Source of the DNA: Selaginella moellendorffii
Lineage: Eukaryota > Plantae > Lycopodiophyta
Reading direction: 5' to 3'
DNA: 64,000 nt
Assembly: GCF_000143415.4 (NCBI RefSeq)
Contig: NW_003314272.1
Location: forward strand, 1,744,374-1,808,373
Each line of letters opens with the position of its first letter. Position 1 is the first letter of the stretch. Of the stretch, positions 1 through 34,199 are shown piece by piece. Position numbers and translations under genes: made by a program. The notes beneath the pieces are model-generated. The model saw only the letters and a program-made list of their open reading frames with translations. It was not told where the DNA came from and searched no databases.

Positions 1-138
1 CATACTTGACCTGGTTAGAGAAACTCATTTGTTGACTTGCACTTGCTAATGTTGGGAACCCCCGCAATATTGAGCTTGGTCCCTCAATATTCGCTAGATG
101 ATAGCTTACCGTGTCTGCCAAACACCCTCGCTATCATG

Positions 139-1287
139 TGTAAGCCACAAATTTTTCCTTTCCAATTTGCCAGCTTACCTCGTCTATCCATCCAACACTG
201 CCTTGGCTTTTGCTAAGTTCCCTTGCCAAGGTTTTCGTCTATGGTACCAGCTCCTACTTGGTTTCAGCTACTCACTGCACGAGCAACGGAGTGTTAGCCA
301 TCCTTCCACAGATTCCCAAATCACTCTCAATCCCCCTCCCTGGGTTAGACTGGACTTAAGGTTCGGCTACACTCCCTGCAAGCACAAGTAGCCAAGCACA
401 CCAAGCTTCCAGGTTCCTAACATCCCTTGGTACCACAAGACTTGATCATGGGACCCTCTAAATCCCAAGTCTTGAGTGCAACACTTGCTTCGGGACGCCG
501 GGGCGAAACACCGTGGCCTAGCGGCCCGGTATGGGTACCTCTTGCCCCCCACTTCCATCCCGAAGGAAGGCCCAAGCCCCTAGGAAGGGCGAGGACCAAT
601 GAGCCGCATGGTACTCAAGTGGGGCACCACTCCACATGAGCCGGGAGCACCGCAATCGGTTTCCCTTTCGGGAGTGGGAGCTGCTCTTGAGCACTTCCTT
701 GGATGGCCCCTCCGGCACCAGCCAAGTCCATGCTCACTCCCACCCAAGGCCCCTCGGTCCCAGTCCCAACCTCAAGTCGGTTTGGAAGCCCAACTGGAGA
801 GTCCCTTCAAAACTGGTTCCTGGACCTCACTATCCCTACTATACTTTTGGAACCCCCTGCAGCCCCCCCCCCCCTGGGAGACGCACGCTTTGGGCTTTCA
901 CCCCTTGACCTGTATTAGTATTTGGACTTAGTCTCTGGCTCGATCTCGGACCCGATTTCGGATCCGACTTCGGATTCGGGTTTGGACTCGATCACGGACT
1001 CGATCTCGGACCCGATCTCGGACCCAACCTCGGACTCGACCTCGGACTCGGTCTCGGACCCGATTTCGGATCTCGGACTCCGTCTCGAACTCGGTCTCGA
1101 ACTCGGACTCGAACTCGGTCCCCGAATCGGTCTCAGACTCGATTCCGGACTCTATCTCGAACTCGGTCCTAGAGTCGGTCTTGGACTCGATCCTCGACTT
1201 GGTCCCATCCGATAAACTCTTTGTCATTTCGGTCAAGCTTTTGGGGATCCTTTAGCCTACGACATCTCGGGGAGTCGGTTCCTTACA
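139..1287 (-). repeat. 3' LTR of family A element (1149 bp, contains CTCGGA-type 6/12-bp tandem repeats at ~935-1200)
   Basis: Near-identical to 6523-7341 apart from two indels; TG...CA ends. Confidence 0.96.
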
Positions 1288-1300
1288 ACTCCACCACCCA
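1288..1300 (-). promoter_or_regulatory. Polypurine tract (TGGGTGGTGGAGT on minus strand)
   Basis: Immediately adjacent to the 3' LTR; identical tract at 11573-11585 in family B. Confidence 0.85.
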
Positions 1301-1690
1301 TAGAAGAGGTTCGATGCCCACATCGAACGTCTCGCTTTATCCTACGACTTGTTGACCATGTCTCCGGGGGCATCCCCCCACTTAGCGGTGTGCCTAAGTT
1401 AGCCTCCCCGGCCAAGAGCCCATGACAACGGAATATAGGTGTCCCTATACTCCTCACCTCACCACGCCCTAGTATGGGGTCGGGACTTGAACCCAGCCTT
1501 GCTTTACTAGGGGGTTGGGACTCAAACCCAACCTCCGTAGAATATGTCTACGGATTCGACATCCCCGCGGGGAGTCGGGCGTAGTGCCCTACGCCTGGTC
1601 GACCTATCCAACCCATGCTAATTAGCTTACCTTTGGCGCGCCTTCGGGTCCCAACATATTGCACTTGCTCAACTTTGCAAATTGATATTT

Positions 1691-4600
1691 TTAATTGAAT
1701 TTTGCATAAGTACATAGAGTTCTGCCTTGCAGAAATTCCTCCACTAGTTCTCGAGCGTTCGCTAGGTTCTCCTCCGGTTCCCATGTTGCTTCACAGTGTG
1801 GAAATCCTTTCCACTTCACATGGAACTCTCTCACCTCACGTCCTTGTCGCTTGCTCTTGCGCGCATTGAGGATGGCCTCGACTTCGTATTCCTCTTCCCC
1901 TTGGATAACCTCAGGTAAAGGTCTTACTTGGTCCTTGCGAAGCGGATCCTCAAAGTACGGCTTGAGTAAGTTCACGTGGAACACTGGGTGCATCTTCCCC
2001 ATCTCTCGAGGAAGTCGGAGTCGGTAAGCCACTTTACCGATTCGTGCCTCAATTTCATAAGGCCCCGTGAACCTGCTTAAGGAACTCAAGATCAATTCAT
2101 TTACAGGAATACATGCATCTTTACCTTTGGGTCAACTTTCGGCTGATCCCACTTGGTAGTCTGAGGTTCTTGGTGTTCAGCCACACCTTCTCCCCCGCTT
2201 GGAACTCCACATCCCGACGCTTTTGGTTCGCGTACTTAGTTTGCCTTTGTTGAGCCCGTTCCAAGGAATCCCTCACTAGATTCCAAATGTTGAGTCTTTC
2301 CGCCGTGAATGCCTCCACTGCGGGTAACTCTCCATGATACTCGGCCACGCCGAGTTCCACAGGACCTTCAATAGCTCGCCCATTGATGAGTTCCCATAGA
2401 CTCACCCCGATGCTTGAGTGTGGTGAGTTGTTATAACACATTTCCGCAAGTCCCAAATGACTTACCCAGTCGGTCTGGTCTCCCAAGACATAGCATCGCA
2501 AATATTCCTCCAGCTGCCTATTCACCCTTTCCGTTTGTCCGTCTGTCAAGAAGTGTTAGTGCCATCAATCTTGACTTAATACCCATTACCTATCTGTGGG
2601 TGATAGGCTGTGCTGAATTTCAATTTGGTGCGATACTGTTCTAGGAGTGTCCTCCAGAACCTACTAGTGAAGATCTTATCTCGATCTGAGATAATCTCTT
2701 CCGGCCTTCCCCGCACTCGAACCACTTGTTCAAAGAACAGCTTCGCCACACCTTCCGCATCCACTTCTGTTGTGGTGGGTATGAAATGTGCCATTTTCGA
2801 AAATCGGTCCACCACCACGAATATCGCATCAAACCCCTCGCTTGGGGGGAGTCCCGTGATGAAGTCCATCATAAGACATTTCCACAGGCGATCTGGAATT
2901 GGGATGCTTTGCAACAAGCCCCCACTAGCCTTAGTCATGGCTTTTACCTGCTGACATGTTGGACATGTCTTTACATAGTCTTGGACGTCCTTAGCCATAT
3001 CTGGCCAATGGTACTTCCTTTTGAGTAAGCCCATCGTCTTGGGCACTCCACCGTGTCCCGCAAGAGGTCCGTCATGACACTCTTCTAAGGCCACCTTCCT
3101 TAGTTCCCCTTCTGGAACATACACCCTCGTTTGCTTGTAATAAATGAGTCCGTTGCGTTCTGCATAGCCCGTTTTCTCTTCCGTTGGCAGCTCACCTCTC
3201 TGGTGAGCTTCCCGCGCCTCTAGATTCCTCAGCAACACTTCCTGTGCTAGACCATCGTTCTCATATGCTGTCCGCACATCGTCCCAGAAGGTTGCTGTTG
3301 CGCTGGATATTGCCAACTTCAATCTCGCTTTTCGACTTAGCGCATCCGCCACGATGTTGCTCTTCCCAGGCTTGTACAGAATTTCGCAATCAAACTCGGC
3401 CAAGGCATTGGCCCACCGACCTTGTTTCCCTCTTAGGTCGGGCTGTGACAAGAAGTGTTCCGTTGCCACATTGTCCGTGTAAACCTTGAAGTGTCTCCCA
3501 AGGTAGTGTTGCCACTCCTTGAGTGCCTTGACCACCGCAAACAATTCCTTCTCGTGGGTAAGCCACTTCCGTTGAGCCTTGTCCAGCTTCTTCGAGAAGA
3601 ACGCTACCGGATGGTTGTCTTGCTTCAGAACTGCACCTAATGCAAAGTCCGAAGCATCCGTTTCTACCTCAAAGTCCTTACCAAAGTCTGGTAATGCCAA
3701 TACGGGAGCCTTCCTCAACTTCCCTTTGAGGTGGACGAATGCCGCCTCGCATTCTGCTGTCCATACCATCTTCCCTTTTCCTGTTTGGTCCGTTAAGGGC
3801 AGGGATACTCTCGAATAGTGTCTGATAAACTTTCGATAGTAGTTGCATAGCCCCAGGAACGCCCTCAACTCATGTACATTCGATGGTCGCTCCCATTCCT
3901 GGATCGCTTGGACCTTCTCCGGGTCCACCTTGAGCCCGTCCTGGCCCACCACATGCCAGAGAAACTTTACCTCTTGTTGAGCAAAGTCACATTTGCTCTC
4001 TTTAGCATACAGCTTGTGTTCCCTTAGTTTCTCAAACACCTTCGCCAAGTGTTCGGCATGCTCTTCTAGCGTCTCGCTATAGATCAGGATGTCGTCGATA
4101 TAGACGACCACGAAGTGATCCAGATAGGGTACAAAGACGTGGTTCATTAGCGCCGAAAACGTCGCCGGTGCATTACATAGCCCGAAGGGCATCACCAGAA
4201 ACTCAAAGCTCCCATACCTCGTTTGACAGGTTGTCTTCTCGACATCTTCCTCGGCTACCCTGATCTGGTAGTATCCTGACCTTAGGTCAATCCTCGAGAA
4301 GTATTTTGCCTTTCCCAACCTATCGAACAGGTCCTCAATCCTTGGCAAAGGGTACTTGTTCTTCTTTGTATACTTGTTGAGCAAGCGGTAGTCTATGCAC
4401 ATGCGCATAGATCCATCTTTCTTTTTCACAAATAACACCGGCGCCCCATACGGCGACTTGCTCAACCTAACATACCCTTTGTCCACCAACTCCTCTAGTT
4501 GGCACTTGAGCTCCTTGAGTTCTTTTTCGTTCAAACGATAAGGGGGACGAACCACTGCCTCAGCACCCTCGACCAGCTCAATCTTATGTTCTATCGGTCG

Positions 4601-6382
4601 TGCTGGGGGCAGCCCCGCCGGTAGCTCCTCCAGCATGGTATCCTGGAATTGGTTCAACACCCGTTGGATCACTAAAGGTACTTCTTCCATTCTTGTCTTT
4701 CTATTACTCTTCACCGAGAGTAAGCACAAAAAGGCCACTTTAGTTCCCTTAGTGAGTTGTCCTCTCGTGGACACCAGGTTTAAGCAGGAATCTTTGGCCT
4801 TGCTTTGCCCTACCTTTAGATCTTGGGCCTCCACCCTAGATCTTCTTCCTTGGGCATTCGCCAGTACCACAAGGTTTCTACTTTGTCCATGCAGGGCTAC
4901 CACGAATCGATTGAACCAGTCCATTCCGAAGATCACGTCAAATCCCACCATGTCCAACACGGTGAAGTCCATGTCCACCTTCCAAGTCCCCACTTCGACT
5001 CTCGCTTGTCGAAGTACCTCATCGGTGCTTTGGCTACCTTGAACAAACTCTATAGTCCTTGGTTCGCCTAGCCGCTGCACCGTTAGTCCAGCTTGCCGGA
5101 CTATGTCTGCAGCCACAAAATTATCCAAAGCATCCGTGTCAATAAGGATTTTAACAAAGCTACCTCTGAGCTTCCCTCGGAGGGCTAGTAGATGTCGCGA
5201 ACGACTCTCTACCAAAGTTGCTCGTGTAATGAGTAACTTTGAGTTAGGGGCTGGATCACATACCTCTGTTTGGACTTCACCCGACTTGATGGCCATATTG
5301 GCTCTGGCCTTCTTCGGGTAGGGACATTCCCTCGAGAAGTGTCCCGCTTCACCGCAGTTGTAGCATACGTTGTTTCCCACGCTGCTATATGACTTGACCT
5401 TCTTATCCGTGGGTTTGTCTCTTTTCGCCTGACTCCCCCACGTACTCGCTCGCTGGCCACCGGATCTGCCTTTCCGGAACCCCGAGGACTCATTCTTAGA
5501 GAAACTCTTCTTGAATTTCCCTCTGCTAAACGTTCCCCTTGGTTTGGCCCCTTTGCTAAACGTAGATCCCGACCCCGTCGTGTTCCCCTTTTGCAGGTTA
5601 TCATTGAAATGCACCTTGATGGCCGCATCCAACGCTTCTTTGTAGTTGGTCGGGTTCCACCGCATTACTTCGCCGCGAGCCCAGGTTTGCAAACCTGATA
5701 TGAAGGCATGGAACGCATCCATATCCCCCATGTCCGTGACAAGTATCCTCTTTGCCATAAACCCATTCACATACTCCTGAATGGTTCCGGTCTGCTTCAG
5801 CCTACTCAGCTCGTCCCTTAGATGCAGAGTAGCATTTGGAGGAACGTAAGTTGCGCGGATCCTCGCCTTCATCATTTCCCAAGTGGCCACCGGTCCTTCG
5901 TTGGCCTCTGTCGTTCTCCACCAAGACTTGGCATTATCTGCCAAGTATGGTTTTGCACATGGGACCTTCTCCGAGCTTGGTAATCGCAACACTCGGAAGT
6001 AGTCCTCCATATCGTAGAACCAATCCTCCACCACCTTATAGTCGTTCACTCCCTTGAAGACCGGTGGGGGCTTTGGTTTGTACTTGGGAACTGCCTGAGG
6101 GACCGATTCCACTTCGGTCTGTTCGACCTTGTCTGGTTTTGCCTCAGTCCCTGCCGAAGGGTCCGCACTTTCTGCGCTGCCAGCATCCGCAGTCTTTCGC
6201 TTTTTCTTCCGCTTCTCGTCACGCTTTAGCTTGCGTACGAGAGTCTCTAGCAGATTATTGGTCTGTGCCAATTGTCCTTCTAGAACATCCAATCGAGCCT
6301 TGGACGACCGAACCTCACCACCAGACTCATGTTTGGAAGTTGCCTCACTGGAGTCCTCCTCATGCAAGGATTCCTCATCCAT
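1691..6382 (-). CDS. Gag-Pol polyprotein with C-terminal chromodomain; exons 6382-2590, 2542-2125, 2072-1691 (two putative introns in integrase)
   Basis: Zn knuckle [14 protein letters not shown]; protease LIDTDA (G->D at active site); RT YIDD; RNase H ETDAS; integrase HHCC and MDF..SD..E; GPY motif; chromodomain [21 protein letters not shown]. Removing 2543-2589 and 2073-2124 joins the three ORFs in frame. Confidence 0.92.
2073..2124 (-). other. Putative 52-nt spliceosomal intron before the GPY motif
   Basis: AG|GTAAAG...TAAGCAG|GT; removal gives KLTQRFTGPY. Confidence 0.85.
2543..2589 (-). other. Putative 47-nt spliceosomal intron in integrase core
   Basis: G|GTAATG...CACTAAC...TTGACAG|AC; removal gives AYHPQ(I)DGQTER. 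Confidence 0.8.
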
Positions 6383-6507
6383 CGCCTCCTGTTCGACTGG
6401 AGGCTCCAGCTCTGGAGGAGGTTCCGTCTCTGCCTGGGTTCACTTACGTCCTGCCCTTGCCATCTCCCAGCAATCCGCCTCTATCCTTCGCTAGAACTGA
6501 GGAAGAG

Positions 6508-6519
6508 GCTCCGATACCA
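6508..6519 (-). promoter_or_regulatory. Primer binding site, tRNA-iMet type (TGGTATCGGAGC)
   Basis: 3 nt inside the 5' LTR boundary; one mismatch to canonical TGGTATCAGAGC. Confidence 0.92.
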
Positions 6520-6522
6520 AAT

Positions 6523-7341
6523 TGTAAGCCACAAATTTTTCCTTTCCAATTTGCCAGCTTACCTCGTCTATCCGTCCAACACTGCCTTGGCTTTTGCTAA
6601 GTTCCCTTGCCAAGGTTTTCGTCTATGGTACCAGCTCCTACTTGGTTTCAGCTACTCACTGCACGAGCAACGGAGTGTTAGCCATCCTTCCACGGATTCC
6701 CAAATCACTCTCAATCCCCCTCCCCGGGTTAGACTGGACTTAAGGTTCGGCTACACTCCCCGCAAGCACAAGCAGCCAAGCACACCAAGCTTCCAGGTTC
6801 CTAACATCCCTTGGTACCACAAGACTTGATCATGGGACCCTCTAAATCCCAAGTCTTGAGTGCAACACTTGCTTCAGGACGCCGGGGCGAAACACCATGG
6901 CCTAGCGGCCCGGTATGGGTACCAGCCAAGTCCATGCTCACTCCCACCCAAGGCCCCTCGGTCCCAGTCCCAACCTCAAGTCGGTTTGGAAGCCCAACTG
7001 GAGAGTCCCTTCAAAACTGGTTCCTGGACCTCACTATCCCTACTATACTTTTGGAACCCCCTGCAGCCCCCCCCCCCCCTGGGAGACGCACGCTTTGGGC
7101 TTTCACCCCTTGACCCGTATTAGTATTTGGACTTAGTCTCTGGCTCGATCTCGGACCCGATTTCGGATCCGACTTCGGATTCGGGTTCGGACTCGATCAC
7201 GGACTCGATCTTGGACCCGATCTCGGACCCAACCTCGGACTCGATCCGAGACTTGGTCCCATCCGATAAACTCTTTGTCATTTCGGTCAAGCTTTTGGGG
7301 ATCCTTTAGCCTACAACATCTCGGGGAGTCGGTTCCTTACA
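6523..7341 (-). repeat. 5' LTR of family A element (819 bp)
   Basis: Copy of 139-1287 lacking ~180 bp (540-719) and part of the tandem repeat array. Confidence 0.96.
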
Positions 7342-7363
7342 ACTAATGTAAGCTCCTGAGTTT

Positions 7364-7418
7364 GGACTTCCCGGGAGGTCACCCAGCCCAGTACTATTCA
7401 AACCCAAGGACGCTTAAC
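7364..7418 (-). promoter_or_regulatory. 5S rRNA-derived internal control region (Pol III A box/IE/C box) in Cassandra 3' LTR
   Basis: Minus strand GTTAAGCGTCCTTGGGTTTGAATAGTACTGGGCTGGGTGACCTCCCGGGAAGTCC versus plant 5S GTTAAGCGTGCTTGGGCGAGAGTAGTACTAGGATGGGTGACCTCC(C/T)GGGAAGTCC. Confidence 0.92.
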
Positions 7419-7763
7419 CCCAAATATCCCAAGACCCTTAACCGATTGGAAAAGGGGGTGCACTCTTATTCATGGGCCCTTTCCCTCTATATTTGAACCC
7501 CATGGACCGTCTCTCAAGTCGTTCTCTTTGGTTGCTTACAATCCACCACGCTTCCCTGCAAGTTCACGCCCTCGTGAACGGAAGCTGAGAGCCGCAGCTC
7601 TCCCGAGAGCCCCGCTCTCTTGACACCCTACCCCTCGGGTCGAGCCCAGCGGGAGCAAACTGGACCAGCCAGATGTCAATCAACATGTGGTGTGATTCCC
7701 CTAGCCAACCAACAGAGTCGGACCCGAGACCCCCTCTGATACCAAATGTAAGCTCCTGAGTTT

Positions 7764-7818
7764 GGACTTCCTGGGAGGTCACCCAGCCCAGTACTATTCA
7801 AACCCAAGGACGCTTAAC
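7764..7818 (-). promoter_or_regulatory. 5S rRNA-derived internal control region in Cassandra 5' LTR
   Basis: Second copy of 7364-7418 with one substitution. Confidence 0.92.
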
Positions 7819-8139
7819 CCCAAATATCCCAAGACCCTTAACCAATTGGAAAAGGGGGTGCACTCTTATTCATGGGCCCTTTCCCTCTATATTTGAACCC
7901 CATGGACCGTCTCTCAAGTCGTTCTCTTTGGTTGCTTACATCATGCCCTTTGTGTTAATCTCATTTCGGTCCCAAATGTTATTTCTAGAAAGTGTCTAGA
8001 TTTGCTCATTTGGCATATCTACGGAATGTAGAGATCGGCCCGAACACAATGGTGTTCGTCCCGTGTCCAAATTCACAATCTAAGGACATTCTATATTTAG
8101 TAAGTTTTGAGCTTGTCCTAGAGACTAACTCCTGGTACT

Positions 8140-8713
8140 AAGGGAGGCTTGGGGTGAAAGCCCAAAGCGTGTGTTCCTCAAGGGGGGGGGGGGCTATGGG
8201 GGGTTCCAAATGTATAGTAGGGATAGTGGGTAGGTCAGGCATGGCTGACCAACCTGAGGCATAGTCTAGCTCTCGCTTGCGTGCCTGTCCTTGTTCTGCT
8301 TCCGGCTTGGGTCTAAGCCCAAGTTCCATTCCATGTTAGGTGGTGGAGTACCCATATCCTCACGTTAGGCCACCAGTATGCCGAAATAGCTCCAAACTCC
8401 ATTTGGCTCCGTTTTGCATGCTGGTCCTGGCATTGGGATGTTGGTTGCTCCAGGACTATTCCAAGTCGCTCCGGGCTCCTATCCCTTCGCTCCTTGGGCT
8501 ATATGCTCGGGAGTTGCTCCGTGGTCCGGTTCCATCACTCCTTGGCATCCTGCTTGGGAGTTTGGCACCGTTCCTTTGTTCAGTGGCCCAAGGCCCTGAA
8601 CCTCGGGTTCCTATGGACACGTGGCATGGACATGTGGTATGTGACATGTGGCATCTGTCATGTGGCACAAAGAAATCACCATAGGATAAAGGGTCAAAAC
8701 CACGTGCGCTACA
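8140..8713. mobile_element. LTR-like fragment of a third family (family C)
   Basis: 8150-8230 resembles the reverse complement of the family A LTR TATA/poly-C module; 8554-8713 recurs at 33837-34033 and both copies end in ...CTACA. Confidence 0.5.
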
Positions 8714-10849
8714 CCCACCCTCTAGTAAAGCAAGGCTCAATTCAAGTCTTAACCCTATACTAGGGTGTGGTGAGGTGAGGAGTATAGAGACACATATATT
8801 CCATTATTATAGACTCTTAGTTGGGGAGGTTGATTTAAGTGCATTGCTAAGTGGGGGGATGCTTCTGGAGACATGGTCAACAAGTCATAAGGTTAAAAAA
8901 AGATATTCGATATGGGTATTGAATTTCTTTAATGGGTTGTGAAATTGTAAGGAACCAGCTCTCTGAGGTGTTGTAGGCTAAAAGATACCTAAAACCATGA
9001 CTGGAATGATAAAAAGTTCATTGGATAAGATCAAATCCGAAATTAAGTCCGAAACTAACTTCGAGACTGAGTGCGAGACTGAGTTTGAGATCAAGTCCAA
9101 GACTGACTCCAAAACCGAGTTTGAGACCGAGTCCAAGACCGAGTTCGAGACCAAGTCCGAAATTTGATAATGAGTCCGAAGTCAAATATGAGATTGAGTC
9201 TGATATCGAGTGATAATGAAGTACAGGAACCAATTTTGAAGGAACTCTTCAATAGTGCTTCCATACCGATTTGAGGTTGAGATTGGGGCTTAGGGGCCTT
9301 GGGTGGGAGTGAGTATGGACTCAAGTGGTGTCGGAAAGGCCACCCAAGGAAGTGCTCAAGAGTAACTCCCACTCTTGAAGGGGAAATTAATTATGGTGCT
9401 CTCGGCTCATATGAAATAATGCCCCACTTGAGTACCTTGTAGCTCACTAGTCCTTATTCCTTCCTAGGGGATTAAACCTTCCTTTCGGGATAGAAGTGGG
9501 GGAGTAAGGGTACTTATACTAAGCTGTTAGGCCATAATGTTTTCCTCTAGAGTCCCAAAGCAAGTTTAGGATTTAAAAGGTCTTATAATCAAATCTTGTT
9601 ATACCAAAAGATTGTGATGAATTTAGAGGTTTGGTGTGCTTAGTTACTTGTACTTTTGGGGAGTGTAGCCGAACTTTAAATTTAGTTTAACTTGGGGAAA
9701 GGGAGTATGAGAGAAATTAGGAATTCGTGGATGGATAACTTACACTTTATTGCTTTGCAATAAATAGTTGAAACCAAAGTAGAAGTTGGTGGCAGGAACT
9801 TTGGTGAGGGGATTTAACTAAGGCTAAAGCAGTGGTAATCGAATAAACGAAGTAAATGTAAGCGACTAAATTTTTCATTCTACTTTAGTCACTTAACCAC
9901 ACCTCTGACCACTTGGAGGAGTCTCATTCACAACCTCCATCAGTCCAATTCAGGACTTGGGACTTGCTAGCCCCAAGAATGGCATCCATGCCACTCAACA
10001 CTTGCACCTGGTCCAAGTGCTCCACGTGTCCGGTCCCAAGACCGACACCCAAAGGTACCACTAACATCTCGGCCCGTTACGCTAAGGCCATGCCCATTCA
10101 CCTTTACTGCACTAGTGGTCCAATACCACTTGCATCACCATCCCGTCTCTCCAAGACTGGGCCATCTGTCCACGAGTGGTCATCCTAGATCCACTCCTTA
10201 GCATCATTAGGATGCCCACAGACCTGGGGAATCGCCTTCTCCAAAGTCCCTTTTGTCAGTTCCTACCAAGTCCCTTCCTGCCCCTGGCCGTGTTTGCTAA
10301 CACTGCCACTGGATCGAGGCCCACAGGCCCGACCACTAAGTCCCACGGTCCTCTGGGACTTCCTCACCACACGACTGTGTCCTTGGTCACTACCCCAGGG
10401 GACTGCTCCTCTTCCTTTCCACAGTCTGGGCCTTTGGGACAACATTTCGGAACACCGTGGCCTTACGCGAGCCACCTGGGTACTCTCCCCGCCTTTCGCC
10501 TTTAGGTGCTCTAGCCATGGGCTTAGAGCGAGGTTCCGTTGAGCCACGCCTGGTATCCAAGTAGGTAGTGCCACCCACACTTGGACTGGGAGCATCGGCC
10601 AGTCGATCTCCCGGGGGAACTAAAGCCGGCTCTTGAACACTTCACCAAGCTACCCCGCTTGTCGGTCCGTATTCACTCTAGTCTTGGACTTCCCAGTGGT
10701 CAGTTCATCACCCAACACTGGGTCTGGCCTTCCTGGGCCAAACTAGCCTTTCCTGGCCAAACTGGCTCCACTGCAGTCCTCCCCCTTACTATACTTTTGG
10801 AGCTCACCAAACCCCCCAGGGTCTGGGAGACGAACGCTTTGGGCTTTCA

Positions 10850-11340
10850 CCCTCTCAGACTCGGACTCGGACTCGGACTCGGACTCGGACTCGGGCTCGG
10901 GCTCGGTCTCAGCCTTGGCCTCGGTCTCGGTCTCGGTCCCAGTCTTGGTCCCGGTCTCGGTCTCGGTCCCGGTCTCGGTCTCGACCTCGGACTCCATCTC
11001 GGGTCCTTCTCGGACTCCATCTCGGACTCCATCTCGGACTCCGTCTCGGTCCATTTCGGACTCCATCTCGGACTCCATCTCGGTCCATCTCGGACTCCAT
11101 CTCGGGTCCATCTCAGACTCCATCTCGGTCCACCTCGGACTCCACCTCGGACTCCATCTCAGGTCCATCTTGGACTCCATCTCGGACTCCATCTCGGGTC
11201 CATCTCGGAGTCCGTCTCGGTCCACCTCGGACTCCACTTCGGGTCCATCTCGGACTCCATATCGGACTCCACTTCGGACTCTACTTCGAACTCCATATTG
11301 GACTCCACTTCGGGTCCATCTCGGACTCCATCTCGGACAC
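10850..11340. repeat. Tandem minisatellite inside family B LTR: (CTCGGA/CTCGGT)n followed by ~11-12-bp CTCGGACTCCAT/CTCGGGTCCAT units
   Basis: Directly visible; recurs at 16760-17080, 31190-31330, 31560-32110 and 33111-33600. Confidence 0.9.
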
Positions 11341-14300
11341 TTCCACATGTCATGTGTTGGTCCCTTTTGGGTCCCTTTTTGGAGCCTTGCTTATTGCTTG
11401 CTTCGTGCTCGCTCCTTGAGCACTTTGTTGGGAGTTCCACTCCCGCTCTCGACCTTCCAAGTCAGAGCTTTTAGTTCAAATGTGTTACACTCGTTTGGGC
11501 TTTCGCTTCGGCCACTACCACGTGGCACCCTTTCCGGCTCCACTTTGGGGCCTAGGGATTTTGTGTCTCACAACTCCACCACCCATAGACGAAGTTCGAT
11601 GTCCTCATCGAACAGTAAACCCTTTTATAAAGTAACACCCGCATGTGTTACCATTTCCATCCTTGGCACCTAGCCAATGTTTGTCAATGGTTTGACATTG
11701 AAGGCTCACCATGCCTTCTCCATATTCGTCAATGGTTTGACACCAAAGGCTCACCATGCTTTGCCCATCCTCTAAGGAGGATAGTCTCTCCAACTTAGAG
11801 ACTCACTTGACCACCTAGGGTGGTTTGCTCCTTTTTATTGGTTCAGTTCTCGCCAAACCTGTTAAAGACACCCTCTCTAACTCAATTCCACTACTCATTC
11901 TTGAGTAGTCACAGATTCCATTGATCTACCTTTGCACTTTGGAACGTTTACTTTTGACTTTTTGGAGCAATTTCCTAGGTGTCTCTGACTCCTTGCCTTG
12001 CACATTTTGTGCAACTCCACTTCCCCTCCTAGGAAGTTCTCTACTCGAGGGCACCCTCATCCTCTTTTCTATTTTTGCGCCACCATTGGCATTACGTTCC
12101 ATTTATCATTATTTGTGCTAGGGCTGTCCACGGCCCTATCTTTTGGCTACTTAGTTGCTCCCTCACTTGGAGCCTTTCCTTTGCCAAATTGGAGCACTTG
12201 GGAATCCATCCTTGGAAGTCCACTTCTTTTTCCGCAATCCGTTAGCACCAAACACATTAGTGTTCTTTGGCTAACTTTGCCACTTGGATTCTTTCCAATG
12301 GATTCCACGGCCCTATCTTGGGCACTTGTCTTTTGGTCCTATCCTTGGATTGTTGTACCAAGCAACATAGGATTGCTACCTCCATTTTTGAGGTTTCCTT
12401 TCGGTTCCATAGCAAACACTTTGCTTTGCCAAGTCCAGAGGGTGTTCACCCCTAGTACGTCTCTTTAACATTTTCTGTCGTGGGCTCTTTCCACGGCCCA
12501 ACTTTTTGAGACCCTCCCTTGGATCTTTTATAGAGACTACTTTCCTTGGACTTACTATGCCATAGCATTGACATAGCTCATTTCCCTTAGGTGTTCTTCC
12601 CACTTGGTCACCTCAACCAAGCCACACTTTTATCACTAGTTCAAATCAACACTTTGAACTAGGAATCATATTCCTTAACCCAAACAAAGACCTTGTCCTT
12701 GTTTAGCCACAAGATCACCTAGCGATCTCATCTTGACCCCTTAATAGGTCTAGCAATAGGAACTAGGTCTTCCAGACCCTTCTAAGTTGCTGACTATGAC
12801 CCCGGGGGCATCCCCCACACTTGGCGGTGTGCCCAAGCCAGCCCTTCCGGCCAAGGATCCATAGCAACTAAGACTGGGTGTCCCCATCTCATTCACCACG
12901 TCCTTGGTGCCCTTTGCACCAAAGTGTTCAAGTTAGATATGCCGAGCTTTCACTCTAAGCAATCTAACCGTGCATCACGACTCCGAGGCATCCCTCGCTT
13001 GGCGGTGTGCCCAAACCAGTCTCCACACTGAGAGTCCATGACCACCGAAAAATGAGTGTCCTCATATTCCAAACCATCACCACGCCCTAGTGAGTTGGGA
13101 CTTGAACCCAAGCACTAGAGGGTCGGGACTCGAACCCAACCTTCGTATATGCATCTACGGACGGCATCCCCTAGGATGCTTGGCGTGACTCTCCACGCCG
13201 GTGCACCAACTCAAAGCGCGCTATAGATCACAGCTTAGGAACCTAGTTCCTCCACACTGCCAAGTCCTCTCACTTGACAAATCTGTGATCATGCATGGAC
13301 TCCTCCATTTGAAGTTATCACCTTCAACTAGGGTATTTGTTCCCCTGACTTGCCAATCTCACTTGGCAAGTCTTCCGACCACTGTAACATGGTTCCTCCA
13401 CAAGCGTGAAAGCCCTTGATCATCGACTTTCATTCAAAGCCCTCTCTTTGAACACTCAAGAACTATTTCCCTAACCTTAATAGCCTTGCCTCATGGCAAG
13501 CTTCAAGACCACGCTTCTGCTGTGCCACTCTGATTTCACGCTTTCCTTGAACCATTTACGCTTGGCCTTTCTAGGTACTAAGCTACCTAGAATCGTCTTT
13601 GGGAACCTTGAAGGAACTCTGTCCCTTAGCTTGCTAAAGCTTCCCTTTTCGCAAGCTTTCTAGTTGCCATATAGTCTAATATGGACTATTCCATATTTTA
13701 AACTCTCCATGGCATCACGGTTGCTAGCAACAACACCCTCGAACCCCCACTTGATTCTCCACTCCCAGCTGGCATAACCAACCTTGGTTATACCCTTCAA
13801 TTCCTATGGTTCGGTTCTACCCCCTTACTTCTTGCTTTTGGCTTCACACCTTTCCTTTGGTCATTCTCCTCCAGACCAGGAGGATAGCTTTGCACTTTCT
13901 ATCATGCCTTAGCAAGTATTCTTTGGGATAAACCTACCCGATAGCCTAGGGAGTGGTTCCTCATTCCAGGTATGCTCACCCTATAATCCCACACACCGAG
14001 ATTACGTTGTTGTTTATGGGCCTTTACATGCCCATCGCTAGCCTTGCCAAAATTCCATTTTTGGCTTTGTCCAATTCGAGTAGACAGTCTTCTCCTGTCT
14101 CCGCCACCTTGGACATTTGGATAGCACCTTCTATCCATCATTCGCTAGGGACTTAGTCCCTTGGGCCTTATCTATTGCCCTCGCGATATCAAACACCACC
14201 TTCTGGTGTTCTAGAGTGTTCGGGTGTCCCAATGACGGCTTCCTTGACAATGAGTATTTCCTTTCATGACATTGACTTACTATATCGTAACATAAGCAAC

Positions 14301-16508
14301 TTATCCCCCGTAAGGGTATATCCAACTTTCTTATGCCATTAAGAAGGCTTGGGTAGCTACCTTCTACCCGTTTAACCAATTATTTTGCACCTCTTGCTCA
14401 GTTGCCTCATAGTTGTCAAGTCCTACAACTCATTGTTGGTGCTTCCACACCTCCATCATTATCTGGGTCACCACACTCCAACTGCATACTCTGCAACTTA
14501 GGCTATGCCATTCCCATTTCCATTGGGATTCCTTTGGCAAGGGGTTCTCATGAACCCACCAACATAGCCTCAAGGTATCACACCTTGGCACATTTGGTGT
14601 CTCCACACCATCAGCTCCACGAGCCTACCTCTATGACACTTCTTCTTTGTGTCTAAGTCTTTGCCAAGACCAATACCACTCTTTCTCATGCCAACCATCC
14701 ATTAGCACTGCACCATAGAGGTCACACACAACTTTGTTTCAAAGTTGTTTTCTTTTGGGAACACCCTTCCCACGACTTTAGCATGGCACATTTTGCCATC
14801 GATGAGATACCCTCTGTTCTCATCCTTGGATCCTATGATCCCCCCCATCCTTCGTGGGGTACCATACACCTTAGTCCAAATGCTTCCATCAATCCTTTAG
14901 GATTATTCCTTGACTCTATTGGAGTCATCCAGCTTTTTGGACTTTGTCATCCGACGACCCATGAGGTCCTATCTTTGAGGTGCCAGCTCACTGGAATACA
15001 ACTTCTTGTATTCAGGTCCTACTCACAAGGACCATCTTTGCAAGTGTTACTCTGACACTTGATTTGTTCTCTTGGGGCAACCTTTTGCCTCTTAGGACCA
15101 TTTGTCCATGTGATGAGAATACCAACTCATCCTCTAAGTACATCCCCAACTCCTTAGGTTGTTCTAGCATTTATCAAGGGTAACCTCAGCTACCATTTCG
15201 AGGACTTGTGTCCTCTCCTATATTTGACCTCCCATGGTCATCAATTCCGGTCTCAAAGTTATGAACACCGGCCTCAACTATATGAGGGTAATCTTGTGAC
15301 TCCTTTATTATTTTGGAGTTTACATCTTTCCCGTGATCCCAACTATAGTTGTTTATCACAACTACATTAGCCCGTTTGCTGCGTCAAACGCTCATTTGGA
15401 TTACATCCTCAGCTCTCTGAGGAGACCTTATACTGTTCCCAAGATCCCAAAGTCGTTCCATTATTGGCCCTTTTCTATCCACCACATTGTGCCCAAGTTC
15501 TCGCATGAACTTGAGTGGAGAGCCATGTCCTCTCGACATGCTACTCCTCCAGGATAAGCCCACTCCTAGGACCTCCCGATGCCAACATCAATGGTGATAT
15601 ACTTGAGCACCAATAAAAGTCAGACTAAGAAACAGCTCCGATACCAAGTTGTAAGTGACTAAATTTTCCATTCTACTTTAGTCACTTAACCACACCTCTG
15701 ACCACTTGGAGGAGTCTCATTCACAACCTCCATCAGTCCAATTCAGGACTTGGGACTTGCTAGCCCTAAGAATGGCATCCATGCCACTCAACACTTGCAC
15801 CTGGTCCAAGTGCTCCACGTGTCCGGTCCCAAGACCGACACCCAAAGGTACCACTAACATCTCGGCCCGTTACGCTAAGGCCATGCCCATTCACCTTTAC
15901 TGCACTAGTGGTCCAATACCACTTGCATCACCATCCCGTCTCTCCAAGACTGGGCCATCTGTCCACGAGTGGTCATCCTAGATCCACTCCTTAGCATCCT
16001 TAGGATGCCCACAGACCTGGGGAATCGCCTTCCCCAAAGTCCCTTTTGTCAGTTCCTACCAAGTCCCTTCCTGCCCCTGGCCGTGTTTGCTAACACTGCC
16101 ACTGGATCGAGGCCCACAGGCCCGACCACTAAGTCCCACGGTCCTCTGGGACTTCCTCACCACACGACTGTGTCCTTGGTCACTACCCCAGGGGACTGCT
16201 CCTCTTCCTTTCCACAGTCTGGGCCTTTGGGACAACATTTCGGAACACCGTGGCCTTACGCGAGCCACCTAGGTACTCTCCCCGCCTTTCGCCTTTAGGT
16301 GCTCTAGCCATGGGCTTAGAGCGGGGTTCCGTTGAGCCACGTCTGGTATCCAAGTAGGTAGTGCCACCCACACTTGGACTGGGAGCATCGGCCAGTCGAT
16401 CTCCCGGGGGAACTAGAGCCGGCTCTTGAACACTTCACCAAGCTACCCCGCTTGTCGGTCCGTATTCACTCTAGTCTTGGACTTCCCAGTGGGCAGCTCA
16501 TCACCCAA

Positions 16509-16757
16509 NNNNNNNNNNNNNNNNNNNNNNNNNNNNNNNNNNNNNNNNNNNNNNNNNNNNNNNNNNNNNNNNNNNNNNNNNNNNNNNNNNNNNNNNNNNN
16601 NNNNNNNNNNNNNNNNNNNNNNNNNNNNNNNNNNNNNNNNNNNNNNNNNNNNNNNNNNNNNNNNNNNNNNNNNNNNNNNNNNNNNNNNNNNNNNNNNNNN
16701 NNNNNNNNNNNNNNNNNNNNNNNNNNNNNNNNNNNNNNNNNNNNNNNNNNNNNNNNN
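16509..16757. other. Assembly gap (N run) inside family B 5' LTR
   Basis: Run of N. Confidence 1.
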
Positions 16758-18164
16758 CGGTCCCGGTCTTGGTCTCGGTCTCGGTCTCGATCTCGGACTC
16801 GACTTCGGGCTCCTTCTCGGACTCCATCAAGGACTGCCATCTCGGGTCCATCTCGGACTCCATCTCAGTCCACCTCGGACTCCACCTCGGACTCCATCTC
16901 AGGTCCATCTCGGACTCCATCTCGGACTCCATCTCGGGTCCATCTCGGAGTCCGTCTCGGTCCACCTCGGACTCCACTTCGGGTCCATCTCAGACTCCAT
17001 ATCGGACTCCACTTCGGACTCCACTTCGGACTCCATATCAGACTCCACTTCGGGTCCATCTCGGACTCCATCTCGGACACTTCCACATGTCATGTGTTGG
17101 TCCCTTTTGGGTCCCTTTTTGGAGCCTTGCTTATTGCTTGCTTCGTGCTCGCTCCTTGAGCACTTTGTTGGGAGTTCCACTCCCGCTCTCGACCTTCCAA
17201 GTTAGAGCTTTTAGTCCAAACGTGTTACACTCGTTTGGGCTTTCGCTTCGGCCACTACCACGTGGCACCCTTTCCGGCTCCACTTTGGGGCCTAGGGATT
17301 TTGTGTCTCACAGTAAACTGGTAAATTGGAAAAGAAAAATTTATAATTTACAATAAGTTCACATAAAACACAAAATGCATCTTCTCTATTTCCTAAAAAA
17401 GTTAAAAGTGGTGAGCCACCTTTGATGGCTAATAAGACTGGCCTCCACATTATTCCAAAGTTTTATATTTTTGTTGTGCTTTACTTTCAACATGGCATTC
17501 TTGTTGAAGATCTTAGATTCAATGCTTGTGTAGCTGCTCCTCTTCCTTGGCATGCTTGGAATTTTACAAAACTAAGATGCTATTGTCAAGAATGGAAATT
17601 GGAAATACAAACCACGATTTCCAAGTCACTCTTGATGCACACTTATTCTTGAAGCAATCAAGGGACAAAGAGCCAGGCAAGAAAAGACTTGAAATATCAC
17701 CTGCCATGAGCTTTAGATGTGTCATCCACTGACCTGGATCCTCACTGCCGCCACCTTGTGATCAGCTTGCTAGCACTCTCACGGCTGTAAGCAAAGCCAT
17801 GACTATAACCCTAGAAGAAATGTCTTCCTCCCACTGCTGCTATGCTCCTCCCGCTGCCCAAACTAGTAGATTGCCAAGGTGGCGTGGCTAGAGGAAGAAG
17901 GTATATCTGTTATCTTTGGAGTTAAGGATGTAAAATGTGTGTGATGGTGATCTTTCGTTTGAGATTACATGCTTAGACATTCCCACTAGTTCTATTAATG
18001 TGTTTGAATTTCTGGGCAAATTCTAGTTTAATTATAAAAATTTCACTTCCAGTGCTGACAAGGTATGTGTATGGTGAGGAAGAATATCTGAGGTAATTCA
18101 TGGTCGTTTATTATTTCCTGACTTATTCACAGTTGTCACAGCAAGGATACAAATCGTGGGCAGT

Positions 18165-32100: not shown

Positions 32101-33833
32101 AGTTCGAGTCTGAGAGGGTGAAAGCCCAAAGCATTCGTCTCCCAGACCCTGGGGGGTTTGGTGAGCTCCAAAAGTATAGTGAGGGGGAGGACTGCAGTGG
32201 AGCCAGTTTGGCTAGGAAAGGCCAGTTTGGCCCAGGAAGGCCAGACCCAGTGTCGGGTGATGAACTGACCACTGGGAAGTCCAAGACTAGAGTGAATATA
32301 GACCGATAAGCGGGGTAGCTTGGTGAAGTGTTCAAGAGCCGGCTCTAGTTCCCCCGGGAGATTGACTGGCCGATGCTCCCAGTCCAAGTGTGGGTGGCAC
32401 TACCTACTTGGATACCAGGCGTGGCTCAACGGGACCTCGCTCTAAGCCCATGGCTAGAGCACCTAAAGGCGAAAGGTGGGGAGAGTACCCAGGTGGTTCG
32501 CGTAAGGCCATGGTGTTCTGAAATGTTGTCCCAAAGGCCCAAGCTGTGGAAAGGAAGAGGAGCAGTCCTCTGGGGTAGTGACCAAGGACACAGTCGTGTG
32601 GTGAGGAAGTCCCAGAGGACCGTGGGATTTAGTGGTCGAACCTGTGGGCCTTGATCGAGTGGAAGTGTTGGCGAACGTGGCCATGGACAGAAAAGGGACT
32701 TGGTAGGAACTGACAAAGGGATATTGGGGAAGGCTATTCCCCATGTCTGTGGGCATCCTAAAGATGCTAAAGAGTGGATCTGGGTTGACCACTCGTGGAC
32801 GGATGGCCCAGTCTTGGAGAGACGGGATTGTGATGCAAGTGGTATTGGACCACTAGTGCGGCAAAGGTGAATGGGCATGGCCTTAGCGTAACAGGCCGAT
32901 ATGTCAGTGGTGCCTTTGGGTGTCGGTCTTGGGACCGGACACATGGAGCACTTGGACTAAACGCAAGTGATGAGTGGCATGGATGCCATTCTTGGGCTAG
33001 CAAGCCCCAAGTCCTGAATTGGACTTAAGGAGGTTGTGAATGAGACTCCTCCAAGCGGTCGAAGGTGTGGTTAAGTGACTAAAGTAGAATGGAAAAATTA
33101 GTCGCTTACACTCGGACTCCATCTTAGGTCCTTCTCGGACTCCATCTCGGATTCCATCTCGGGTCCATCTCGGACTCCGTCTCGGGTCCATTTTGGGCTC
33201 CATCTCGGGCTCCATCTTGGGCTCTATCTCGGACTCCATCTCGGATCCATCTCAGACTCCATCTCAGGTCCATCTTGGACTCCATCTTGGGTCTTTCTCA
33301 GGTCCATCTCGGACTCCATCTCAGACTCCTTCTTGGGTCCATCTCGGACTCTATCTCGGGTCCATCTCAGACTCCATCTTGGACTCCATCTCGGGTCCTT
33401 CTCAGACTCCATCTTGGGTCCTTCTCGGGTCCATCTCGGACTCCAACTCAGGTCCAACTCGGGTCCATCTCGGATCCATCTCAAACTCCACTTTGGATTC
33501 CAACTCAGGTCCATCTCAGGTCCATCTCGGGTCCATCTCGGACTCCACTTTGGACTCCAACTCGGGTCCATCTCAGACTCCACCTCGGGTCCATCTCGGA
33601 CTCTTCCACGTGTCATGTGTTGGTCCTTTTGGGTCCCTTTCTTGGAGCCTCGCTTATTATTTGCTTCGTGCTCGTTCCTTGAGCATTTTGTTGGGAGTTC
33701 CACTCCCGTTCTCAACTTTTCAAGTCGGAGCATTTGGTCTAAACGTGTTACGCTCGTTTGGCTTTTGCTTTGGCCACTACCACGTGGCACCCTTCCGGCT
33801 CCACTTTGGGGCCTAAGGATTTTGTGTCTCACA
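29185..33833 (-). mobile_element. Truncated, internally rearranged family B element (interior + 5' LTR ending at 33833)
   Basis: 29190-29700 ~ 14585-15100; 29704-30125 is an inverted copy of 15555-15970 (PBS + LTR start); 30135-30515 ~ 15165-15550; 30520-31331 and 33111-33833 are the rest of the LTR. Confidence 0.85.
31332..33110 (+). mobile_element. Solo LTR of family B inserted in opposite orientation into another family B LTR
   Basis: TGTGAG...CTTACA ends; TSD CTCGG at 31327-31331 and 33111-33115. Confidence 0.92.
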
Positions 33834-34037: not shown

Positions 34038-34199
34038 TTCTGGGAAGTCTAAATTTAGGAGTTTATAAGATGCTTAACCCCAAATATCCCAAGACCCTTA
34101 ACCAATTGGAAAATGGGGTGCACTTTTATTATGGGCACTTTCCCTTTATATTTGAACCCTATGGATCACCTCTCAAATCGTTCTTTTTGGTTGCTTACA
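34038..34199. mobile_element. Degenerate Cassandra LTR fragments in opposite orientations (34038-34066 inverted terminus; 34067-34199 distal LTR part)
   Basis: 34067-34199 matches 7408-7540; 34038-34066 matches the reverse complement of 7347-7376 with C->T decay. Confidence 0.8.

Follow-up and report, generated by a model that had tools for sequence, protein, structure and literature searches.

Organization of the locus

In the window (the whole 64,000-nt stretch of Selaginella moellendorffii DNA analyzed here), a Cassandra TRIM (7347-7940, 594 nt) and a chromodomain Ty3/gypsy element (139-7341, 7.2 kb) lie head-to-tail on the minus strand, separated by the five nucleotides ACTAA. This layout had been put forward in a preliminary description of the locus, and each of its coordinates, as well as the head-to-tail order on the minus strand, was found to match the sequence. 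The composite contains four LTRs, which constitute two unrelated pairs. The window also has an assembly gap at 16509-16757, and the surroundings are highly repetitive.

The gypsy element, when read on the minus strand, starts with a 5' LTR of 819 nt (6523-7341) and ends with a 3' LTR of 1149 nt (139-1287), both of the form TGTAAG..CTTACA. Three nucleotides (ATT on the minus strand) lie between the 5' LTR and the PBS (TGGTATCGGAGC on the minus strand; 6508-6522 including the three nucleotides). On the PPT side (1288-1303), the minus strand reads TATGGGTGGTGGAGT and then enters the LTR, and the last three nucleotides before the LTR are AGT. On the plus strand these appear as ACT (1288-1290), situated between the 3' LTR and CCACCACCC, which is the PPT seen on the other strand. 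Another gypsy copy, represented in run X7 by a contig loose end behind 7344, likewise reads LTR+ACT+CCACCACCCATAGAAG.

Pfam searches and frame analysis delineated a gag-protease-RT-RNase H-integrase-chromodomain reading frame on the minus strand (1691-6439). Its only breaks are two short, intron-like segments bounded by GT..AG, both in the integrase gene (47 nt at 2543-2589 and 52 nt at 2073-2124, minus strand), and its pieces are colinear with homologous polyproteins (5/5). The domains detected were Retrotrans_gag, RVP_2, RVT_1, RT_RNaseH, Integrase_H2C2, rve, SH3_Tf2-1 and Chromo (E 8.5e-17). Since this copy encodes all domains in the gypsy order with a C-terminal chromodomain, it was classified as a chromovirus. 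A tblastn search with the polyprotein revealed no second coding copy in the window. At 9857-17312, the window contains a related element that carries an ordinary 5-bp duplication for itself (GTAAA/GTAAA), and this element shows what an independent insertion looks like in this gypsy lineage.

The Cassandra element is bounded by two LTRs of 194 nt each, again TGTAAG..CTTACA on the minus strand: the 5' LTR at 7747-7940, with a 5S rRNA-like part at 7750-7837, and the 3' LTR at 7347-7540, with a 5S rRNA-like part at 7350-7437. The Rfam 5S_rRNA model matched the LTRs with 34.4 and 31 bits (E 2.9e-5 and 2.2e-4), which is under the gathering score of 38, and in both LTRs the match spans the model from end to end with about 32 model positions missing; at the gathering threshold, Rfam gave no match across the 64 kb. 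On the PPT side (7541-7556), the minus strand reads GGGAAGCGTGGTGGAT and then the LTR. The PBS (minus-strand TGGTATCAGAG) is separated from the 5' LTR by two nucleotides, TT on the minus strand (7734-7746 in total). In plus-strand terms, AA (7745-7746) lies between the PBS, CTCTGATACCA, and the LTR, and this AA is a family-wide feature of Cassandra, given that it also occurs at PBS loose ends before 7345 in runs X1, X3 and X7. The element lacks coding capacity, its sole frame of at least 80 aa being an 87-aa stop-to-stop frame on the plus strand. It is thus a noncoding element of less than 1 kb with a 5S-derived part in its LTRs and with a PBS and a PPT beside them, and was assigned to Cassandra on this basis.

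A single target-site duplication and the empty site

The gypsy element alone is flanked by TCATG and ACTAA, and the Cassandra element alone by ACTAA and TCATG, so that neither has a 5-bp duplication of its own. The pair (7.8 kb), however, has TCATG on both sides (134-138 and 7941-7945), exactly as the preliminary description had pointed out. The chance that two random 5-mers of the window are identical is 0.0011, which serves as an estimate for the TCATG duplication. The outer ends of the composite are trimmed, in that it starts with TG and ends with CA and the extra bases are missing.

It had also been predicted that the empty site would carry a single TCATG and no ACTAA. We found this arrangement in 16 contigs of X1 and 28 of X2, two public runs that derive from a single sample (44 contigs in total), which read contiguously ...CCAAACACCCTCGCT-A-TCATG-CCCTTTG..., with TCATG present once and ACTAA absent; these contigs are paralogous copies of an abundant host repeat and not the orthologous allele. 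Their loose-end consensus agrees with the left flank in the window at 28/30 and 26/26 positions, and the host repeat is very abundant, with 5619 X1 contigs and 5655 X2 contigs placed on 195 nt. Given that the paralogous contigs read A-TCATG-CCCTTTG with one TCATG, the pair entered an uninterrupted site as a single insertion, and TCATG is a genuine duplication.

As for the filled site, a depth of 6.81 in X2, whose sample is possibly the one from which the assembly was made, reaches the end of the Cassandra LTR (bin 7932-7938), which indicates that the reads include the filled outer junction. Runs X1 and X7 showed zero depth at 7925-7938, and nothing from run X4, which derives from a related species, aligned to 7925-8119.

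Composition of the linker

On the minus strand, the linker (7342-7346) reads TTAGT, that is, the TT of the Cassandra PBS side followed by the AGT of the gypsy PPT side. The inner junction consists of the Cassandra U5 end (..CTTACA), TT, AGT and the gypsy U3 start (TGTAAGG..). This is the order of a circle-type (2-LTR) junction, with its two sides derived from different elements. When the possible splits of the linker were tested, 2+3 alone fitted; the decomposition into ACT and AA given in the preliminary description is therefore exact. Only 0.7% of the 5-mers in the window equal any possible 'PBS-side + PPT-side' string, which corresponds to a chance of 0.007 for the linker. The exact 26-nt junction pattern had 0 matches in metagenome contigs.

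Ages and shared motifs of the two elements

Over 818 aligned nt, the two gypsy LTRs differ by 13 substitutions, and the Cassandra LTR pair shows 2 substitutions in 194 nt (Fisher p=0.75). The gypsy LTRs are further set apart by three indels, of 180, 151 and 1 nt. The LTR ages of the two elements are equal within error. The earlier statement that the divergences are similar therefore stands, although the gypsy count made by eye (about 11/800) is corrected to 13/818 and the indels had gone unmentioned.

The termini, PBS and PPT core had been described as shared, and this was also seen in our motif comparison. The U3 starts, TGTAAGCAACCA in Cassandra and TGTAAGGAACCG in gypsy, are alike at 10/12 nt, and the U5 ends are GCTTACA (7 nt) in both elements. 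Both also have the PBS TGGTATC[A/G]GAG, which at Cassandra we take to be a match to initiator tRNA-Met, and the PPT core GTGGTGGA, located 1-2 nt from the LTR. Many plant LTR elements have a PBS of the initiator-methionine type. The PBS lies 2 nt from the LTR in Cassandra and 3 nt from it in gypsy, so that the spacing is unequal. Local alignment of the Cassandra interior with the gypsy leader and 3' UTR aligned the PBS alone, with scores that were reached by 25 and 75 of 300 shuffles. Therefore, no shared packaging signal is visible.

Proposed mechanism

We propose that linear cDNAs of Cassandra and of the gypsy element became linked at their ends and that a single integrase event inserted them together, which we consider probable. 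The preliminary description had arrived at the same reading, and the paralogous empty site with its single TCATG and no ACTAA supports it. In detail, two full-length linear cDNAs would have been blunt-joined at their inner ends and inserted by a single integrase event. At the inner ends, the bases usually removed by integrase would have been retained or refilled, and host end-joining would have ligated these ends. The joining possibly preceded integration, as a linear heterodimer or a cut hetero-circle; alternatively, it may have taken place just after an intasome had attached the U3 end of Cassandra and the U5 end of the gypsy element at target positions spaced by 5 bp. Less certainly, one integrase complex may have held both outer ends. 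If so, then both cDNAs would have been in the same particle or pre-integration complex, and the gypsy lineage or a close relative would be the likely supplier of Cassandra's enzymes here.

It is plausible, judging from one fossil event and from the shared end, PBS and PPT motifs, that the gypsy lineage mobilizes Cassandra. The preliminary description had taken the composite as what would be physical evidence that a chromodomain gypsy mobilizes Cassandra here; the co-integration part of that claim is borne out by the empty site and the linker, whereas the mobilization part is drawn from a single event. We also tentatively suggest, as a rather doubtful extension, that Cassandra RNA may have been co-packaged with RNA of the chromovirus lineage, that both may have been reverse-transcribed in one particle, and that a four-ended pre-integration complex may have inserted one end of each, in which case hetero LTR-LTR junctions under a single duplication would be a general genomic fossil, and non-autonomous LTR elements could be assigned to autonomous partners from a genome-wide census of them.

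Alternative explanations

Co-integration may be real without Cassandra being a client of the gypsy element. That is, the enzymes of some other element may have made the Cassandra cDNA, which was then end-joined to gypsy cDNA in the nucleus, and a loosely specific gypsy integrase may have used the TG end of Cassandra. Ty1 integrase is described as accepting any TG..CA end, with non-Ty fragments that end in this way being integrated with a 5-bp duplication (PMC2939329), so that use of the Cassandra end is no proof of a dedicated partnership. In addition, the PBS is the only internal sequence that Cassandra and gypsy have in common, and Cassandra is far commoner than the gypsy LTR in the runs (summed depths of ~1e6 and ~1e4 in X1). 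However, the likeness of the ends goes beyond TG..CA, and the PPT core occupies the same position in both elements. Moreover, the same report proposes that the substrate choice of Ty1 integrase, and hence its normal specificity, comes mainly from compartmentalization in particles (PMC2939329); by this reasoning, co-integration would signal co-location. On balance, we regard an enzyme source outside the gypsy lineage as unlikely.

It is very improbable that two independent insertions, or a rearrangement, mimic by chance both the shared duplication and the circle-type junction. Accidental adjacency is conceivable, as both families are abundant, and inter-element recombination does yield elements without a duplication of their own; in sugar beet, target-site duplications are reported to be retained by no more than 49% of solo-LTRs and by about 71% of tandem copies (PMC13570524). 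Nevertheless, the joint chance would be ~0.0011 x 0.007, and ACTAA is not host sequence; the 44 paralogous contigs read straight through the host site with one TCATG. Furthermore, integrase-mediated insertion of one element beside the other would leave its own 5-bp repeat, and this is absent.

It is also very improbable that the inner junction arose by misassembly of Cassandra and gypsy copies from different loci. None of the contigs listed as aligning to 7262-7746 bridges 7341/7347, the junction being known from the assembly, and the window is highly repetitive with a gap at 16509-16757. False joins, however, arise inside shared repeats and not where two complete LTR termini meet across 5 nt that consist of the elements' own flanking bases, and the outer flanks, which carry the duplication, are contiguous in the paralogs.

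Template switching during reverse transcription was rejected, as it cannot account for a pair of complete elements that have four LTRs between them and primer-adjacent bases where they meet. Read-through transcription of two elements that were already neighbors was also rejected, because no R region common to both is available for strand transfer. The locus does not have the form of ordinary nested or adjacent independent insertions, in which each element has its own 5-bp duplication, as the neighbor at 9857-17312 does, nor that of a tandem LTR-retrotransposon of the L3I2 type, which needs one family sharing the middle LTR, whereas two unrelated LTR pairs are present here.

Significance and comparison with known systems

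Cassandra's autonomous partner has been called unknown by Gao 2016 (PMC4717578), Kalendar 2020 (PMC7215508) and Kojima 2024 (PMC10886601), in line with the preliminary description. The composite would likely be the first physical pointer to the element that mobilizes Cassandra, with the chromovirus as a concrete candidate. The parts of the literature covered by our search contained no description of integration with ends from two different cDNAs for plant LTR retrotransposons. If our proposal is true, then integration of plant LTR retrotransposons can use the ends of two different cDNAs in vivo, and composite elements as well as structural variation could arise by this route.

The inner junction resembles the 2-LTR circle junctions of retroviruses and LTR retrotransposons, in which the U5 end and PBS-side bases are joined to PPT-side bases and the U3 start. 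End-joined LTR-LTR junctions are reported as a mark of active plant elements, namely Alex1 and Alex3 of carrot, and the carrot circles carry small indels at the junction (PMC9324142), whereas the junction of the composite is exact. In contrast to 2-LTR circles, the ends of the composite come from two families, and it is chromosomal with a target duplication and not circular. Tandem LTR-retrotransposons of the form LTR-internal-LTR-internal-LTR also place more than one unit under a single 5-bp duplication and are read as one retrotransposition-linked insertion (PMC11899658). However, they involve one family with a shared middle LTR, whereas the composite has four LTRs from two families, and additional bases lie at its LTR-LTR junction. 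In the Ty1 system, likewise, ends other than the enzyme's own are inserted with a 5-bp duplication, but there with PCR fragments under overexpression (PMC2939329), whereas the composite would represent a natural event with retroelement cDNA.

The Cassandra copy itself resembles other Cassandra TRIMs in its length of 594 nt, its 194-nt LTRs with a 5S rRNA-like part, its PBS and PPT and its noncoding nature. It is unlike them in that the 5S match is under the Rfam gathering score with about 32 model positions missing, and in having no duplication of its own. The abundance of Cassandra in the runs also looks far above the copy numbers given for other plants (PMC12486564).

Finally, partners have been assigned through sequence-related autonomous elements (Gao 2016, PMC4717578), and here too evidence from genome sequence links a non-autonomous LTR element with an autonomous one. 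Earlier assignments of this kind drew on sequence shared in the LTRs or the interior, or on template-switch chimeras, whereas the tie in the composite is a physical end-to-end joint between what would be two complete cDNAs. Among chimeric elements, those of Dasheng and RIRE2 reportedly tie a non-autonomous to an autonomous LTR element.

Structure of the gypsy-Cassandra pair

We read window positions 1-8400 together with the repeat tables, and the anatomy of the pair given in the preliminary description was borne out. On the minus strand, in 5' to 3' order, the pair begins with the 5' LTR of the Cassandra TRIM (7940..7747), which is followed by TT, the PBS (TGGTATCAGAG), an interior of ~190 nt, the PPT (GGGAAGCGTGGTGGAT) and the 3' LTR (7540..7347). 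The linker TTAGT then leads into the 5' LTR of the chromodomain Ty3/gypsy element (7341..6523), followed by ATT, the PBS (TGGTATCGGAGC), the gag-pol-chromodomain region, the PPT (..TATGGGTGGTGGAGT) and the 3' LTR (1287..139). Every domain is encoded in this gypsy copy according to Pfam (Retrotrans_gag, zf-CCHC, RVP_2, RVT_1, RT_RNaseH, Integrase_H2C2, rve, SH3_Tf2-1 and Chromo). The Rfam 5S_rRNA model matched both Cassandra LTRs over its whole length with an internal gap (34.4 and 31 bits; E 2.9e-5 and 2.2e-4), at scores below the gathering score of 38, and nothing in the window passed the gathering threshold.

TCATG is found on both flanks of the pair (134-138 and 7941-7945). Taken singly, the gypsy element is flanked by TCATG and ACTAA, and Cassandra by ACTAA and TCATG. 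The outer ends of the pair lack primer-adjacent bases, so that the TG start and the CA end abut TCATG directly.

The integrase gene of the gypsy element has two apparent frame breaks, both of which are short GT..AG-bounded segments on the minus strand, at 2543-2589 (47 nt) and 2073-2124 (52 nt), 99 nt together. When translated separately, the three flanking pieces were colinear and almost contiguous with 5/5 full-length chromovirus polyproteins. Judged from sequence, these segments look like two mini-introns rather than decay; if so, splicing would be needed for a full integrase, and the RNA that is copied would stay unspliced.

The pair sits in the interior of a third relative on the plus strand (1-133 and 7946-8945), whose 3' LTR begins at 8946 (TGTAAGGAACCA). 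A stretch of this host interior is about as abundant as Cassandra in the public runs (~5600 contigs on 195 nt; summed depth of ~1e6 in X1). The 3' LTR of this plus-strand host element also harbors a nested 7.5-kb non-coding LTR element related to the gypsy element (9857-17312, minus strand), with LTRs of ~1.7 kb (TGTAAG..CTCACA); an assembly gap (16509-16757) falls inside its 5' LTR. It showed no minus-strand frame of at least 90 aa and no tblastn match. Its PPT side (ACT+CCACCACCCATAGA) is identical to that of the gypsy element, its PBS is similar, and a separate 5-bp duplication (GTAAA/GTAAA) flanks it. It exemplifies an ordinary insertion of this gypsy lineage.

Origin of the linker

The linker had been proposed to consist of terminal bases from both elements. 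We examined the six splits formed by the first k bases after the Cassandra 5' LTR and the last 5-k before the gypsy 3' LTR; they give five distinct strings, and k=2 (TT+AGT) is the sole fit, in agreement with the proposal. Only 0.7% of all window 5-mers match one of the five strings, and two 5-mers drawn at random from the window are identical at a frequency of 0.0011. The order of the linker is also that required of a circle-type junction, in which PBS-side bases adjoin the U5 end and PPT-side bases adjoin the U3 start.

The sequencing runs provide family context. Contigs reaching the Cassandra LTR from the PBS side (..CTCTGATACCA) align from 7345, which indicates that AA is family-wide in Cassandra, and a contig of run X7 reads gypsy LTR, ACT and CCACCACCCATAGAAG, so that ACT is the normal PPT-side neighbor of the gypsy LTR. 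No contig among the matches listed bridges 7341/7347; the inner junction is taken from the assembly.

When run contigs were aligned to 7262-7746 (485 nt), Cassandra proved extremely abundant, with 9935 contigs in X1 and 3784 to 9935 per run in X1-X3; in these runs its summed depth was ~100x that of the gypsy LTR end. This abundance looks unusually high in Selaginella moellendorffii; other plants are cited as having between four and about 5000 copies (PMC12486564). The window also holds a truncated Cassandra LTR piece of ~131 nt (34069-34199; 90-91% identical), which ends in ..GCTTACA and is without the 5S-like half.

Empty site and outer junction

Contigs of the public runs were aligned to 7925-8119, a segment that covers the terminal 16 nt of the LTR, then TCATG, then the right flank. 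This flank is part of a very abundant repeat, with 5619 aligned contigs in X1 and 5655 in X2, two runs of one sample. At place 7940, 16 (X1) and 28 (X2) contigs depart from the reference and continue upstream as ..ACCGTGTCTGCCAAACACCCTCGCT (agreement 0.89 and 0.91). Their upstream consensus matches the left flank at 28/30 positions over 103-132 and at 26/26 over 107-132; downstream, their alignment starts with A-TCATG-CCCTTTG, and window base 133 is likewise A. Other copies of the host repeat thus read ...CTCGCT-A-TCATG-CCCTTTG..., with a single TCATG and no ACTAA. This is the empty-site sequence forecast in the preliminary description, matched here in host-repeat paralogs, not in an orthologous allele. 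Because these paralogs are without ACTAA, a host-derived spacer is ruled out.

In X2, a depth of 6.81 extends into the LTR end (bin 7932-7938), which indicates that the filled outer junction is present in the reads of that sample, possibly the one from which the assembly was made. Depth at this LTR end was zero in X1 and X7, and X4, from a related species, gave no contigs aligned to 7925-8119.

Mechanism of insertion

In the simplest account, the pair would derive from two linear cDNAs, both complete. Blunt ligation would have linked the inner ends with every primer-adjacent base retained, possibly before and possibly after strand transfer, and a single intasome would have attached the outer ends, once trimmed, to target positions 5 bp apart. 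We consider this account very likely, and the single-TCATG paralogs without ACTAA support the earlier co-integration reading as an independent test. Had integrase inserted the elements independently, each would carry its own duplication. Read-through of an adjacent pair is rejected since there is no shared R region, and template switching cannot result in four LTRs.

Substitutions separate the LTRs of the gypsy element at 13/818 positions (11 transitions and 2 transversions; K2P 0.016) and those of Cassandra at 2/194 (K2P 0.010). The similar divergence noted earlier holds (Fisher p 0.75). Three indels, of 180, 151 and 1 nt, further distinguish the two gypsy LTRs. The 180-nt stretch (537-716) is in the 3' LTR and missing from the 5' LTR, with ..GGGT and ACC.. 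aligned on either side, and reflects either a post-insertion deletion or a reverse-transcription error. LTRs of this lineage contain arrays of 11-12-nt units (CTCGGACYCSRT-like; 950-1200, 7140-7260, 10985-11256, 16862-17112 and 33087-33624), and in one element their copy number differs by 151 nt from one LTR to the other. These arrays are likely a seed of satellite-like repeats.

Possible partner of Cassandra

Cassandra's partner was termed unknown by Kalendar 2020 (PMC7215508) and Kojima 2024 (PMC10886601); in the portions of text available, Gao 2016 (PMC4717578) gives no autonomous element for earlier TRIMs, Cassandra included, and papers of 2024, 2025 and 2026 name no partner. Several observations count in favor of this gypsy lineage. 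One intasome apparently held the Cassandra U3 end and the gypsy U5 end. The U3 starts share TGTAAG-N-AACC (Cassandra matches the gypsy element at 10/12 nt and the host relative at 11/12), GCTTACA is the U5 end of both elements, and in both the PPT core GTGGTGGA is separated from the LTR by 1-2 nt. The gypsy copy has all domains, and the window already holds a non-coding dependent of its lineage. Against the partnership stand the single event, the unequal LTR-PBS spacing (TT in Cassandra, ATT in the gypsy element) and the Cassandra interior, which shares no sequence with the gypsy element past the PBS. Ty1 integrase is reported to take any TG..CA end (PMC2939329), which also counts against it. 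The same source ascribes normal Ty1 specificity to confinement in particles, in which case co-integration would be evidence of co-location. We regard mobilization of Cassandra by this lineage as a good, testable lead, and co-integration with this cautious view of the partner, as one statement, seems probable.

Comparison with known structures

Our literature search, mostly at title level, found no description of an LTR-LTR joint of two families integrated under one duplication. Related kinds are known: end-joined LTR-LTR junctions occur in eccDNA (PMC9324142), and same-family tandems that share an LTR occur under one duplication (PMC11899658). The structure of the pair is related to both circle-type junctions and single-duplication tandems.
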